The notes under the pieces were generated by a model. That model did no database searches, was not told the DNA's origin, and was given only the letters and a program-made list of their open reading frames with translations. Position numbers and translations under genes: made by a program. Shown here piece after piece: positions 1,764-25,866 of a DNA stretch of 64,000 nt; position 1 is the first letter of the stretch; each line of letters opens with the position of its first letter. Origin of the DNA: a virus; IMG/VR virus record IMGVR_UViG_3300014050_000017, positions 16,134 through 80,133 of that record; one strand, given 5' to 3'.

Positions 1764-3788
1764 TTATTTAATTGGTACTTCACAGTAATCATTAGAGCAG
1801 TATTTCTCACCGATTGCATCAGCGGCCATCCCTGCATAGACGTCAGTAAAGTCAATAGGAAGCAATTTAAATGTATATTTATCGTATTCTTCCTTAGTTA
1901 TTTGCGTATATGGCATTTGCGGATAGGTCTCGTTCCCCATTGGCAAGAAAGAAACGGTTTTGAGCTGTCCGTCAAACATGTGCAACACAGTTCCTACGGC
2001 GTCCTTTTCAGTATTTGAATTAAATGATACAGTCACAGATACCGAATTGTCCGACCAATGTCGTTGAGCGGTAGAGGCAAGAGACATCTTTTCAAAGATA
2101 GATACATCTTTCTCCGAACGTAGAGCGCTAGATTCAATAGGGAAGAAGACCACACTTGTAGTTTTAGGTGACTCCGACGCCTTTTCTACTTTATAACCCG
2201 ACGCTTTAAACAAAGGTAGCATTGGGTCATCATTAGAAAAGCGGATTGCACGAAGGAAGTGCTTCCCACCAGGAGTCCAGTGAACCCCAGGAGATTCTCC
2301 AGCAAGGATAGACACAGTTCCGCTTGGTTTTACAGTAGTAGTCTTAATAGATTCGCGGATACCTAACCACTCGGAGTAGGTGCGGTCGTAATCTTGGATA
2401 ACCTTGTAACCAGCGTCCATCCACTCACGAAGCACAGGCAAACCTTCGCGGTCAGCAAAGTTAGCCACACCAGACATAGAGGTTCCGATACGGCGGTTAC
2501 GTTGCATAATCGCATTTGTTTCTTCCCAGTGGGTAGGAAGCAAAGTAACAGTCTTAGCGTATAGATACGCAAACTTTAGAGTACGAAGGTAATCTTCTTT
2601 AGAGTCATGGCGGTTCAGGTAAGTCTCCACCAAGGTACAGCACTCAAAAGATTCCAGCGATTGCTCGGCGCATGGGTTGTAACCCGCGGCTCGCCAGTCC
2701 TTGTTGTTGGGCGGGTCTATGAGTCGACCATATTGACGAGTAACGTCCATCCAGATAACGCCAGGCTCACCATTGAGAGCAATACCCTCAACGATATGTT
2801 CTAAATTAGAGCCAACAGATACTTCAACAGAGTTATTAGACATCCATGCCCAACCAGGGTTGGCAGGGTCATAGGAGTTGCGTTCAGGATATACGGCAGA
2901 GTTCTTTAAATTTAAAAAGTCCTTGTCGTCCAGTCTGCCCATGAGCAGCTCAGCAGAGCGGCGGACGTTACCCGAGACCACACAGACACCTATTAAATTA
3001 CCGATATCCGCAATATCCTTGCGAGTTAACTTTTGAGTAGCCCTACCTTTAAATATATTACGAATATAGTCATGTAATTTAATCAGTGGGTCTGGGCCCG
3101 CGGCCGTGCCTCCGAAGGTCTTGATAGGAACACCAGCAGGACGGATAAGTGAGTAGTCAAATATAGGCGACTTCTTATCAGGCATTAGATAGGAGTTGAT
3201 GAGAAGGCTGACAGATTCAACCCAGCCCTCGCGGGTATCTGGGATGACGATTGGGTCTGTATCTGGATGAGGCTCATAAATAGTAAAATCCTTGTCCGCA
3301 CCCTTGTCGTCAAAGCCAACACCTACGCCCAACATTGATGCTTCCATTAGAAAAGCAAATGGTTTAGCAGGGTCTAATTTAGACATGCTAGAAGTAGACA
3401 CGAAAGCACAGTTCTGCAAGGCCGCGGAGTTCTTGAGCTCATTGACCAGTGGGGTGCCCATAACCCATAGCCCACGTCCAGGTGGAGTCCACTTTAAATT
3501 AAACAGGCGGTCAAACGCTTCCTTAGCAGAAGCCTGGGCCCTGGAATCATTCCAAGGTAGTCGTTGGGATTTGCAGTGGTCTTTCTGTAGGGAGTACATG
3601 CCCTCGATAACTCGTTGGCAAACATCTACCCAAGTCTCTTTGGTTCCGTCCTCTTTCAAACGTGAGTAGGTGCGTAAGAAGGTAATCTCACCAACCGAAT
3701 TACCGCCCGCATCTTTATACCCCCAAGGCACTTTCTTGCTCTTGTAGTCCTTTAGGAAGTCCTCGGTTAGTCTGAAAGATAGTGGCAC
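1764..3788 (-). CDS. nrdJ: class II (adenosylcobalamin-dependent) ribonucleotide reductase, monomeric RTPR type
   Basis: RTYSR, PPGRGLW, NCAF, GNVRRSA, NPCAEQ (catalytic), TTVKPSGT, C-terminal CxxxxC; GTG at 3788 follows GGAG (track start 3800). Confidence 0.93.
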   Translation of the reverse strand: MPLSFRLTEDFLKDYKSKKVPWGYKDAGGNSVGEITFLRTYSRLKEDGTKETWVDVCQRVIEGMYSLQKDHCKSQRLPWNDSRAQASAKEAFDRLFNLKWTPPGRGLWVMGTPLVNELKNSAALQNCAFVSTSSMSKLDPAKPFAFLMEASMLGVGVGFDDKGADKDFTIYEPHPDTDPIVIPDTREGWVESVSLLINSYLMPDKKSPIFDYSLIRPAGVPIKTFGGTAAGPDPLIKLHDYIRNIFKGRATQKLTRKDIADIGNLIGVCVVSGNVRRSAELLMGRLDDKDFLNLKNSAVYPERNSYDPANPGWAWMSNNSVEVSVGSNLEHIVEGIALNGEPGVIWMDVTRQYGRLIDPPNNKDWRAAGYNPCAEQSLESFECCTLVETYLNRHDSKEDYLRTLKFAYLYAKTVTLLPTHWEETNAIMQRNRRIGTSMSGVANFADREGLPVLREWMDAGYKVIQDYDRTYSEWLGIRESIKTTTVKPSGTVSILAGESPGVHWTPGGKHFLRAIRFSNDDPMLPLFKASGYKVEKASESPKTTSVVFFPIESSALRSEKDVSIFEKMSLASTAQRHWSDNSVSVTVSFNSNTEKDAVGTVLHMFDGQLKTVSFLPMGNETYPQMPYTQITKEEYDKYTFKLLPIDFTDVYAGMAADAIGEKYCSNDYCEVPIK

Positions 3789-12058: not shown

Positions 12059-12580
12059 TCAGTGAATTTTGATTTCCTTTTCCTTCTTCTCCTCAGGAAC
12101 AATTCGCTCAAGGTCAATGGTCAATAGTCCATCAGCAATACGAGCGTCATTGACAACTACATCGTCAGCAATAGCAAACTTCTGTACAAAGTTGCGTGCT
12201 GCAATGCCTTTATAGGCGTAATCCGCGTAGTCTTCTCCGCGGTTGCCTTCAACAGTAATGATGTTTTCTTTATAGGTAATCCTAACATCATTCTTAGTAA
12301 AGCCCGCAATAGCCAGTTCAATCTGGGCTTTGTCATTAGGTAGGTGTTTAATGTTATACGGTGGGTACGAGCTTTTGATACGAACATCTTCTAGTTCCTT
12401 GAACAGGTCTAGATGACGGTCAAACCCAACAGTCCATGGCGCTAGCATATTCTGCAGTGCAGAAAATGGGTCTTGTACAGCAGGTTTTACTGATGGAAAT
12501 TGTTGGATTGTTTTTGGCTTATCCCATGGTTCGTGAGGTGAACCTTTTGGGTAGCCGCCATTAATTGGAAATGTAGCCAT
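12059..12580 (-). CDS. hsp20: small heat shock protein (Hsp20/IbpA family)
   Basis: SYPPYNI, IELAIAGF, YKGIAARNF..KF, DGLLTI.L alpha-crystallin motifs; AAGGAG before ATG 12580. Confidence 0.93.
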   Translation of the reverse strand: MATFPINGGYPKGSPHEPWDKPKTIQQFPSVKPAVQDPFSALQNMLAPWTVGFDRHLDLFKELEDVRIKSSYPPYNIKHLPNDKAQIELAIAGFTKNDVRITYKENIITVEGNRGEDYADYAYKGIAARNFVQKFAIADDVVVNDARIADGLLTIDLERIVPEEKKEKEIKIH

Positions 12581-12644
12581 AATATATCTCCTTAGACGAT
12601 ATAACTTTTTGTGACCCTCCGAATGAGCGGTCAGCAATAGTATA
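12581..12644 (-). promoter_or_regulatory. hsp20 promoter (-10 TATACT) and structured 5' leader
   Basis: TATACT at 12644-12639; two leader hairpins, the second enclosing the AAGGAG SD. Confidence 0.5.
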
Positions 12645-23258: not shown

Positions 23259-23332
23259 TGGCTCCCCCCCATGGATTCGAACCACAACTGGCGCATCCAG
23301 AGTGCGCTGTCCTACCGTTAGACGAGAGGGGA
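23259..23332 (-). tRNA. tRNA-Gln(CTG)
   Basis: Cloverleaf: TCCCCTC acceptor, GCGCA-CT-CTG-GA-TGCGC anticodon arm, GGTTCGAATCC, encoded CCA. Confidence 0.93.
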
Positions 23333-23333
23333 A

Positions 23334-23409
23334 TGGAGCGGTTGACGGGGCTCAAACCCGCGACCTGTACCTTGGCAAGGTACCGCTCTATCAACTGAGC
23401 TACAACCGC
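23334..23409 (-). tRNA. tRNA-Gly(GCC)
   Basis: GCGGTTG acceptor, GTACC-TT-GCC-AA-GGTAC, T-loop TTTGAGC, TCCA end. Confidence 0.93.
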
Positions 23410-23671
23410 AAGCGGCTAGTAAGTCTACGAGCAGACTAACCTACCAGCCATGATACATGAGGATTTACACAAGCTCGTTGTCCTCCAGCTGTCCTCGTCA
23501 GGAGTCGGTCTTACCGCAACGCAGCCTTAGTACCAAAAATGTCAGGTCGGTTTAAACCACGCCGTAAGGATTAACCGAGTCCCCTGACGAGACCGTCTAA
23601 GCGGCTCTAGAAACCCTTAGATACTTGCGTAAACTTCCAACCAATGAGAAGCCATACAAAGTGTTACTCTG
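23410..23671 (-). ncRNA. candidate structured ncRNA inside the tRNA operon
   Basis: No substantial ORF; several long stems whose G-U pairs favour the - strand; a GCAA tetraloop; flanked directly by tRNAs. Confidence 0.55.
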
Positions 23672-23744
23672 CTGCCCCACCTGGACTCGAACCAGGGACA
23701 CTCGCATTAACAGTGCGATGCTCTGCCAACTGAGCTATAGGGCA
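23672..23744 (-). tRNA. tRNA-Asn(GTT)
   Basis: TGCCCTA acceptor, TCGCA-CT-GTT-AA-TGCGA, GGTTCGAGTCC; no encoded CCA; begins at the base after the helicase stop. Confidence 0.92.
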
Positions 23745-25331
23745 CTAAACGTTGCCGTTAGTCAGGTAGGACCTGAGGCTATCGACCGTCATGGAAAGTT
23801 TATCACCGTCTTCTATGCCATTGCCATCTATGATGGCGTTAGCCACAGAGGACTTCTGTTGAAGCATATCGTGCTGGCGTTCTTCAATAGAGCCAGCCAT
23901 AATTAAATCTTGAATTACGATTGAGGGCCAAGTTGATGATGCTCTTTGTATGCGGCCATTCCTTTGCGTTGCACTGCCCGAAGACCAAGGGAGGTCGTAA
24001 TTGATAAGGAGATTAGCAGCAGGAAGGTCCACACCGTAGCCCCCAGCGTCAGAACTAACCAGTACGCGTACAGCGGGATTAGTATTGAAGTCAGTTTTGT
24101 TAGATTCTTTAGTACGAGCATCCATCCTCCCAGAGTATTGGCGACAGATATCTGCCCCAAGTGCATCGGTAATCTTGTCTAGCATGTCAACGTAGGTAGC
24201 AAATATAACAACCTTATTCTCTTCGCTTTGTTCTAGAAACTCTTGAACATACCTAACTAGGTAATCTAATTTAGGTGAATCCTTGCAGCTATCTAAAACC
24301 CCATTATCGACAAGCTCAGCTATATATGCGGAACCCTCTCCGCCCATTTGTTTAAATTTAGTAGCGCTGCTGCGTAACAAGTCTGGATGAGAGCAGAGCA
24401 TCTTAAGTGCTCCAATCTTAGACATAATCTTTCCACGCATCTCATCCTCTGGGCCACCACGTCGAGATTCCATGCCGTAGTGAGCCATGATGTTAAAGTT
24501 AGAACCAAATAAATCCTGTGCCTCATCTAAGTCTGCAAGCAAGTCTTGAGCTATCTTGGTATAAACCTTTGATGATGCTCTATCAAATATGACAGTAATT
24601 GGGTCTTTGTGAATTGTGTCAGGCAAGAAAGGTGCAACATCTGGGTCTTTTTGTGCCTTACGCACAGAAGCTTCCTTCATCTTATTGTGAAGGGTAGACA
24701 AGTTGCGGTAATACTGGGGTGCGCCCCAAGAGTTTCTTACAATGAAAGCCGCGTCAAAGATATCAAACCTACCAAGTACGCTGGCGTCAACGAATTGCAT
24801 AATGCTATACAACTCTTCTGGACGACCATTCTCAATAGGGGTACCCGTGAGTGCAAACCTATATGGTGTGTTGATAAGTTTTTTGACGGCTTTGGAACGC
24901 TTTGATTTAAATGACTTGATGGCTGTGGCCTCGTCAAGGACGACAAATCCTCTTGGTAAGTCTTTGACGGTATCCCAGTCGTTAACAACTTGCTCATAAT
25001 TAAGGATGATGTAATCAACCCCTGTATTACGCCAGTCTTTCGCAAGGTCGTACTGCTCTGCTCTTTTCTTTGGCGTTCCGTCAACGACCAAAGCACGTGA
25101 AGTACCATCTGTAAATTTCTCTATCTGATTAGCCCACTGATATTTCAATGAGGATAGACAAATTATAAGACCTGGTTCTTTTACTTTCCGCTCATCCATC
25201 AAACGTTCTATAGCCGCAATGGTAAGGACGGTCTTACCTAGTCCGAGGTCATACGCCACTAGAACCTTGCCACGTTCGCACATCTTGTCGACCGCTTCAG
25301 GTTGATAGGGGAGTAGAGTTCCTTTAAACAT
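23745..25331 (-). CDS. SNF2-family helicase
   Basis: YQ, DLGLGKT, LDEA, LTGTP.EN, SPKL, GG.G.DL..AN, QRNGRIQR. Confidence 0.92.
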   Translation of the reverse strand: MFKGTLLPYQPEAVDKMCERGKVLVAYDLGLGKTVLTIAAIERLMDERKVKEPGLIICLSSLKYQWANQIEKFTDGTSRALVVDGTPKKRAEQYDLAKDWRNTGVDYIILNYEQVVNDWDTVKDLPRGFVVLDEATAIKSFKSKRSKAVKKLINTPYRFALTGTPIENGRPEELYSIMQFVDASVLGRFDIFDAAFIVRNSWGAPQYYRNLSTLHNKMKEASVRKAQKDPDVAPFLPDTIHKDPITVIFDRASSKVYTKIAQDLLADLDEAQDLFGSNFNIMAHYGMESRRGGPEDEMRGKIMSKIGALKMLCSHPDLLRSSATKFKQMGGEGSAYIAELVDNGVLDSCKDSPKLDYLVRYVQEFLEQSEENKVVIFATYVDMLDKITDALGADICRQYSGRMDARTKESNKTDFNTNPAVRVLVSSDAGGYGVDLPAANLLINYDLPWSSGSATQRNGRIQRASSTWPSIVIQDLIMAGSIEERQHDMLQQKSSVANAIIDGNGIEDGDKLSMTVDSLRSYLTNGNV

Positions 25332-25866
25332 ATGCCTGCATTCTAGTAACAATCAATAGCTCTAAGTCTTTAAGGCTGCTAGCGTTGACGATGATATGGT
25401 CAAAAGGGTAGTCGTCCATCTGAGTCTCTGATACATGGCCGTTAACAGCAGTTACCCCTGGGCGTTCAACTCTCCACACCTGACCACCAGGCAACTCCCA
25501 GATAGCTGTGGCTTCATTTTTAAACCTAACATCAGTGATAACCCACTTGCCGTATACATCTGTTTTATTTATTGCTTGTTTAATCCAGAAGTCTTCTCCA
25601 AAAACCTTACGGGCAGATACCCCAACAGCTTGTAGGGTGTGGCGAACCTGTGGGTTTTTCTTTGCAGCCTCCCACCCATCACGGTCTACCACATTGCGTA
25701 AAAAGATAGGTTCGTTTGCAACATGGCCAACAATAGGATTGAAGTCATAGCAGAACTCCCTAATGGGGTCAGCAAAGGCTACGCGTTGAAAGCCAAATCT
25801 ACGTACAAGAATCTCTGCAACAGTGTCTTTGCCAGACTGTGCGTATCCCGATAATCCGATAATCAT
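25324..25866 (-). CDS. deoxynucleoside monophosphate kinase (T4 gp1-like)
   Basis: IIGLSGYAQSGKDT, FADP, DVRF.NE, H.SE. Confidence 0.88.
   Translation of the reverse strand: MIIGLSGYAQSGKDTVAEILVRRFGFQRVAFADPIREFCYDFNPIVGHVANEPIFLRNVVDRDGWEAAKKNPQVRHTLQAVGVSARKVFGEDFWIKQAINKTDVYGKWVITDVRFKNEATAIWELPGGQVWRVERPGVTAVNGHVSETQMDDYPFDHIIVNASSLKDLELLIVTRMQAYV

Follow-up and report, generated by a model that had tools for sequence, protein, structure and literature searches.

The 261-nt spacer between tRNA-Asn and tRNA-Gly in the lake phage analysed here is, as judged by comparison with related phages, an insertion, and sequence and structural alignment assigns its first ∼134 nt, as a short form, to a structured-RNA family not catalogued before. 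Our preferred explanation, which we hold to be moderately probable, is that the phage acquired the spacer horizontally, as the gene of a passenger non-coding RNA that is carried in a three-tRNA operon, is released by tRNA processing and acts in trans.

The spacer as an insertion in a tRNA array

The window (the whole 64,000-nucleotide stretch of DNA that was analysed) belongs to an IMG/VR virus record of 80 kb, about 83% complete, from an uncultured lake phage. The genes that define the locus are:

23745-25352, minus strand: SNF2-type helicase gene (PHROGs); tRNA-Asn begins 1 nt past the helicase stop
23671..23744, minus strand: tRNA-Asn(gtt) (ARAGORN; Rfam tRNA, 66.5 bits); CCA not encoded; sets the 5′ boundary of the passenger RNA
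23334..23409, minus strand: tRNA-Gly(gcc) (ARAGORN and Rfam); CCA encoded; its 5′ end, the RNase P site, would set the 3′ end of the passenger RNA
23259..23332, minus strand: tRNA-Gln(ctg) (ARAGORN and Rfam); final gene of the three-tRNA array

A preliminary description of this DNA placed a structured RNA between tRNA-Asn and tRNA-Gly, and the position holds: ARAGORN and Rfam delimit a spacer of 261 nt at 23410-23670, on the minus strand like both tRNAs. Its statement that the spacer lacks a credible open reading frame is also upheld, both by a check of the window, which found no credible ORF in 23410-23670, and by the frames of all family members described below: stops occur in every frame of every member, and no small conserved ORF was found. 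A scan for promoters and terminators called no such site within the spacer.

A search with the helicase recovered 80 related phage loci (76-88% amino-acid identity). The Asn and Gly genes are separated by 3 nt (33 loci) or 6 nt (4 loci) in 37 of the 80; among the rest, one has Asn followed directly by Gln, four end after Asn and 38 are without tRNAs at this place. The window tRNA-Asn is near-identical to the tRNA-Asn of these helicase-linked relatives and the junction is clean: where the relatives read ..GGGGCAGC-GAT-GCGGTTG.., the window has 261 nt replacing GAT. Neither nhmmer nor covariance models matched the element in any of the 80 helicase-linked loci, and its occurrence in the window's phage group is one in 81 loci. 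On this comparison the spacer is an insertion: a sporadic, recently acquired cassette and not part of the core of this phage lineage. Absence from close relatives had been named beforehand as a reason to doubt an RNA gene, and absence is indeed what we find in the 37 relatives that carry the Asn-Gly pair; the conservation and covariation seen in other phages weigh more heavily.

The array evidently accepts cassettes between its tRNAs, because other relatives carry protein genes at the Gly/Gln junction. In locus L016 (5741-6328; also in L017-L021, L026, L028, L030, L031 and L038) a 535-nt insert at that junction encodes a cobalamin adenosyltransferase (PF01923, E 1e-56), the frame of which is stop-free up to the tRNA and in this subgroup extends 53 nt into tRNA-Gln, so that cutting by RNase P would yield a non-stop message. 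Locus L025 (2047-2526) has a 503-nt insert at the Gly/Gln junction with a Cys-rich HNH-like ORF, without a Pfam match, that also reads into the tRNA-Gln gene.

A tRNA-linked RNA family in lake phages

Homologues of spacer nt 1-134 were found by pattern scans and by a scan anchored on an HSP20 gene, the first of them in IMG/VR and JGI lake metagenomes. With the window included, the family comprises nine distinct sequences that are 74-97% identical, all from lake-metagenome phage contigs. Family elements measure 143-167 nt and are present as one copy per phage record. The window copy is:

23537..23670 (∼134 nt), minus strand: family element, short form without P1b (model R2, 125.8 bits, E 4e-29; nhmmer; alignments)

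This segment aligns to model positions 1-164, that is, to the whole covariance model, although the match is partly circular in that the window is one seed row of R1 (A3) and of R2 (A4). Its score of 125.8 bits is the lowest in the family, against 150-196 bits elsewhere, and its closest relatives are the elements of L197 (85%) and L082 (84%). The preliminary description had treated the spacer as one unit of ∼260 nt; what we find instead is a ∼134-nt family member joined to a ∼126-nt extension unique to this phage.

The placement of the element is regular: in all instances it begins 4 nt past the discriminator of a CCA-less tRNA-Asn or tRNA-Met, and in nearly all it ends 2-5 nt ahead of the next tRNA, with a tRNA-like sequence in L175 and a small ORF in L131 instead. 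The window element follows the 5′ rule, after tRNA-Asn; at its 3′ side there are 126 extra nt before tRNA-Gly. Seven different tRNA combinations flank the elements. Those of L209 (Met/Asn) and L177 (Asn/Gln) are 93% identical in different tRNA contexts, which argues that the unit moves, or is reshuffled, as a tRNA-bounded cassette. In the other element-bearing phage groups it occurs in about 9 of 47 loci.

Beyond the lake phages, two pattern scans of 185,579 prokaryotic species genomes gave 0 matches and 4 chance matches, none confirmed by the covariance model, and the covariance model found no element in 151 sampled Actinomycetota genomes. No gene for a partner protein was found to co-occur with the element.

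The host can be approached through neighbouring genes. DUF7455 is a mainly actinobacterial domain, and in L131 a gene for an 81-aa DUF7455 protein (1785-2030, minus strand; E 1e-19), with its own ribosome-binding site, stands in the tRNA's place after the element; the nearest cultured relatives of the window helicase are Streptomyces phages, at ∼39% identity. On the strength of these two observations, the host of the window phage is likely to belong to the Actinomycetota, and the hosts of the family-bearing lake phages are probably Actinomycetota.

Several further features of these loci deserve record. A phage gene for an HSP20 small heat-shock protein lies directly upstream of the tRNA array in most of the other element-bearing phages (e.g., L082, 3339-3854); in the window the HSP20 gene (12059-12637, minus strand) is 11 kb from the array. 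The tRNA-like sequence that follows the element in L175 (∼1797-1880) has a 7-bp acceptor stem and a UUCGAUU T-loop and is not called by ARAGORN. In L082 (3992-4158; the same in L084) a second, different structured spacer of 167 nt (z -2.6) occupies the Asn/Met junction directly upstream of the element. Its ends resemble those of the element (5′ GGAGUA, 3′ GCUGACACAU) and it has a P3-like terminal hairpin; despite the similar ends it is no more than a possible relative of the family, the covariance model giving a non-significant -1.9 bits. Finally, the abiF RNA motif (RF03085) is matched below threshold (31.1 bits, gathering score 37) at 3308-3343 of L083, immediately upstream of the tRNA-Met preceding the element; the match may represent a phage-borne antitoxin-like RNA.

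At the gathering score Rfam returns only the three tRNAs from the window, and at E <= 10 it returns tRNAs plus noise from the window and six full-length members. There was no match at E <= 10 to hammerhead, twister, pistol, hatchet, HDV-like, GOLLD, ROOL, 6S, SRP, RNase P or tmRNA models (Rfam/ARAGORN), and none to group I or group II introns by either program. These searches bear out the first reading of the sequence, in which no tmRNA, RNase P, SRP or intron motif had been recognised; the comparison with Rfam that it proposed yields no family for the window copy or for the full-length members. The only non-tRNA Rfam match near the spacer is to YrlA (RF02553), a bacterial Y RNA; it is small and structured and includes a tRNA-like module. 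The match (23362-23458) reaches 23.1 bits, where the gathering score is 69, and lies mostly on tRNA-Gly; it is carried by the D-arm of that tRNA and not by the spacer, and a Ro/Rsr gene was not noted nearby.

Closer parallels are found in position than in sequence. RNAC and RNAD of phage T4 (species 1 and 2 RNAs) belong to the tRNA gene cluster of that phage and derive from the tRNA transcripts. Both are small, non-coding and without a known function (PMC9697503). The spacer element is likewise encoded in a phage tRNA cluster on the tRNA strand, but it differs from the T4 RNAs in its fold, its phage group (uncultured lake phages) and its probable host, and it is a sporadic cassette rather than a fixed part of the cluster. 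When the region was compared by blastn with 50,697 phage records, assumed to include T4-like phages, only tRNAs matched and no homology to RNAC or RNAD was found. GOLLD and ROOL are structured RNAs of phages or prophages, also without known function, that often lie by tRNA islands and self-assemble via kissing loops; GOLLD env-38 is found downstream of a tRNA-Met (PMC12286853). The lake-phage element resembles them in following tRNA-Met or tRNA-Asn and in keeping a self-complementary loop. However, GOLLD and ROOL are 3-6 times larger (about 500-800+ nt), the element gives no Rfam match, and it is solely the palindrome that suggests its oligomerisation. The family is new and uncatalogued: it shares its niche and likely maturation with T4 RNAC/RNAD and GOLLD/ROOL, without similarity to them in sequence or model.

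Conserved fold and the window-specific extension

RNAalifold, applied to seven sequences, gave three helices with compensatory changes, and the fold was revised after the short forms L197 and L210 were added. In the revised consensus 98.4% of cells are paired and 11 pairs are changed on both sides; neither value was reached in any of 500 shuffles, and slid controls had 25-43% of cells paired. Homologues, for which the preliminary description had proposed to search, exist and show compensatory changes (nine distinct sequences, 11 compensated pairs, 0/500 shuffles). The parts of the fold, in window coordinates, are:

23657-23662 with 23623-27, minus strand: P0 (ACUUUG/CAAGU; ACUUG/CAAGU in the family), almost invariant, with one wobble and one mismatch; encloses P1a
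23648-23652 with 23633-23637, minus strand: P1a (GCUUC/GAAGU), three pairs fully compensated between long and short forms
P1b: optional hairpin of the long forms only, absent from the window
23616-23620 with 23597-23601, minus strand: P2 (CUAAG/CUUAG), three pairs with compensatory changes; variable tip
23597..23620, minus strand: P2 arm, with the palindromic tip UCUAGA at 23606-23611
23541..23594, minus strand: conserved core and P3, with internal loop GGGGACU
23583-23588 with 23541-23546, minus strand: P3a, first pair G-C, A-U or G-U
23573-23578 with 23547-23552, minus strand: P3b (alignments)
23568-23570 with 23556-23558, minus strand: P3c, outermost pair A-U, G-C or U-G across members

P1a is spelled GCAGU/ACUGU in the long forms and GCUUC/GAAGU in the short forms. 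In the window row all pairs of P1a, P2, P3a and P3b are standard, the sole exception in the fold being the outermost pair of P3c, which is U-U. Within the covarying helices G-U and U-G pairs fit the tRNA-sense strand only, in keeping with the earlier remark that such pairs favour the minus strand. The comparative data support helices P1a, P1b, P2 and P3, in a small family in which P3a and P3b are almost invariant and hence hardly tested by covariation. One helix of the initial RNAalifold prediction (55-60/99-104 of A3) was discarded: three of its six pairs are broken in the short forms.

A 25-nt core, ACGGUCUCGUCAGGGGACUCGGUUA, extends over the P3 5′ strand and the internal loop. It has three variable positions across the nine members and is invariant in the window, L082, L083, L171 and L175. 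This is conservation beyond the needs of pairing, from which we infer contact with a partner. Sites in the phage genome that might pair with the core in trans were sought by a gapless scan. Apart from the complement of the core itself, on the opposite strand (0 mismatches), it gave chance matches with 5 mismatches and nothing else; the bulged cis partner in the 3′ extension was not among its results.

The tip of P2 is spelled UCUAGA (or UUCUAGAA) in most members, GCUAGC in L197 and L210, and CUCGAG in L171, and a perfect palindrome of 6-8 nt is kept in all three spellings. The small hairpin that RNAalifold places at the tip is broken in the spellings of L197/L210 and of L171, with self-complementarity kept. 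Co-folding gives two P2 arms an advantage of 8-13 kcal/mol as a duplex. The pattern suggests, by analogy with OLE, ROOL and GOLLD (PMC12286853), that the tip may mediate a kissing-loop homodimer, although a 6-nt palindrome arises in ∼20% of shuffled tips and only two independent variant types were observed.

Folded on its own, the minus-strand RNA of the window spacer has a minimum free energy (MFE) of -91.7 kcal/mol (z = -3.29; none of 200 shuffles folds as well), and the plus strand gives z = -1.40. This agrees with the earlier claim that the spacer folds on the minus strand, and the strand-specific fold together with the covariation supports its wider conclusion of a structured non-coding RNA on the tRNA strand. 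P0, P1a and P2 are all present in the window's own MFE structure. The particular fold proposed earlier agrees only in part with the comparative data. Its first domain, closed by GGCT/AGCC and containing TTGGA..TCTAA, is absent from both the MFE structure and the family consensus; where it was drawn, the relatives support GCUUC/GAAGU (P1a) and CUAAG/CUUAG (P2). The UAC-GCAA-GUA hairpin with a GNRA loop does exist in the window sequence, but its stem or its GNRA loop is broken in four of nine family variants, and it was rejected as a conserved feature. The two remaining domains recur in the MFE structure: a bulged stem of ∼17 bp joining 23573-23591 to 23494-23510 (as 23581-23591 with 23494-23504 and 23573-23578 with 23505-23510) and a 3′ hairpin (as 12 bp, 23438-23449 with 23414-23425). 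Both are the thermodynamics of one sequence, and no homologue of either domain was found in any collection searched.

These two domains involve the segment that distinguishes the window copy. Other members terminate after P3; in the window a U5 run, found in no other member, comes after P3, and the RNA continues for 126 nt:

23491..23536, minus strand: first part of the extension; in the MFE structure pairs with 23573-23591 (17 bp, 2-nt bulge) and with 23554-23564, displacing the family P3
23410..23490, minus strand: remainder of the extension; in the MFE structure a small hairpin (23459-23485) and a 12-bp hairpin (23414-23449) with three G-U pairs; ends 4 nt before tRNA-Gly

No homologue of these 3′ ∼126 nt was found by nhmmer, and exact 18-mers gave 0 matches in IMG/VR. 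Judged by eye, the segment 23497-23525 looks like the P3 3′ strand in a second, diverged version, extended such that it pairs with 17 nt of the P3 5′ strand. For the full RNA the free energy is -91.7 kcal/mol with the long-range stem and -81.4 kcal/mol with the family fold enforced, a cost of ∼10 kcal/mol, such that at equilibrium the conserved P3 would be re-paired into a long hairpin of ∼100 nt. The competing 3′ strands, known from a singleton and from thermodynamics, may be either a built-in switch or a by-product of partial duplication. A complementarity of 11 nt between the 5′ end (23663-23673) and the loop of the 3′ hairpin (23430-23440) was discounted: we estimate that ∼0.3 such pairs are expected by chance.

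Maturation, function and rival explanations

Polycistronic tRNA precursors are processed by RNase P and RNase Z. Because the element sits between tRNAs, release by tRNA processing is the natural route for its maturation. According to the passenger-RNA explanation, the RNA would be transcribed within the helicase-tRNA message; its 5′ end would be freed by RNase Z-type cleavage after the upstream tRNA, which lacks CCA, and its 3′ end by RNase P, cutting where the downstream tRNA begins. The liberated RNA may then act in trans as a folded particle, perhaps by presenting the invariant internal and apical loops of P3 to a protein or RNA partner; it is also conceivable that it pairs with a second copy through the palindromic tip of P2. 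In the window copy, the 126-nt extension would supply a second, stronger partner for the P3 5′ strand. A bolder version of the same idea strikes us as a long shot: a self-dimerising cassette that moves among the tRNA junctions of lake actinophages, is processed by the host and sequesters a host factor (for example, a tRNA-directed defence or processing protein) via the P3 loop, with the window copy a two-state form.

It is possible, though rather unlikely, that the family is functional and the window copy is a decaying or hybrid relic, made by partial tandem duplication of the 3′ strand plus junk, with P3 masked and the RNA inert. The 3′ 126 nt without homologue, the long-range stem that beats the family fold by ∼10 kcal/mol, the missing GAAAGA part of the P3 3′ internal loop and a covariance score below that of every other member (125.8 vs 150-196 bits) are all in line with decay. 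Yet the window copy retains every family helix and an intact 25-nt core, and its short form is common to L197 and L210, so the missing P1b is not decay; moreover, the extension too is highly structured and its G-U pairs fall on the same strand, and in co-transcriptional folding the family P3 would form first. A cis-acting spacer, the fold of which tunes the processing or yield of neighbouring tRNAs or provides tRNA-Gly and tRNA-Gln with an attenuator or a two-state switch, with no life after excision, is distinctly improbable. The precise boundaries (4 nt and 2-5 nt from the tRNA ends) and, in the window, a P3 followed by a U5 run and two competing 3′ strands are what such a device might show; against this, the same tRNAs are matured with a 3-6-nt spacer in 37 relatives, the element adjoins seven different tRNA combinations, its loops are conserved far above what a spacer would need, the U run is missing from all other members and a terminator-like site was not called.

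Sporadic presence (1/81 and 9/47 loci), 93% identical elements behind different tRNAs (L209 vs L177) and palindromic hexamers might also describe a selfish mobile DNA cassette directed at tRNA junctions, or a DNA site there at which recombination takes place or a protein binds, with the palindromes as protein sites. We give this little credence: the junctions are without terminal inverted repeats or target duplications (just two internal inverted repeats were listed), no transposase or endonuclease accompanies the element, and compensatory changes with G-U wobble on one strand only point to selection on RNA; a protein site, furthermore, would keep its sequence and not vary while remaining palindromic. 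Least credible is a diverged member of a described RNA class missed by Rfam, such as a self-cleaving ribozyme, a Y-RNA-like RNA or a GOLLD/ROOL-type fragment. The sub-threshold YrlA match (23362-23458, 23.1 bits) and CUGACGAG-like words, read by eye in the extension and on the opposite strand, are what speaks for it; but the YrlA match is mostly on tRNA-Gly and far under the gathering score of 69, and the window and six full-length members gave no ribozyme, GOLLD, ROOL, 6S, SRP, RNase P or tmRNA match at E <= 10.

Phage tRNA clusters are emerging as islands of orphan structured RNAs (T4 RNAC/RNAD, GOLLD, ROOL), none of which has a known function. The family described here is compact (∼150 nt) and comes with a comparative structure, and should be experimentally tractable. 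In our view its almost invariant 25-nt core must contact something; in the P2 loop, self-complementarity is the sole conserved property. The cassette-like presence and absence of the element in close relatives provides natural pairs of phages with and without it. If its partner is found, this could reveal the purpose of a whole class of tRNA-linked phage RNAs.
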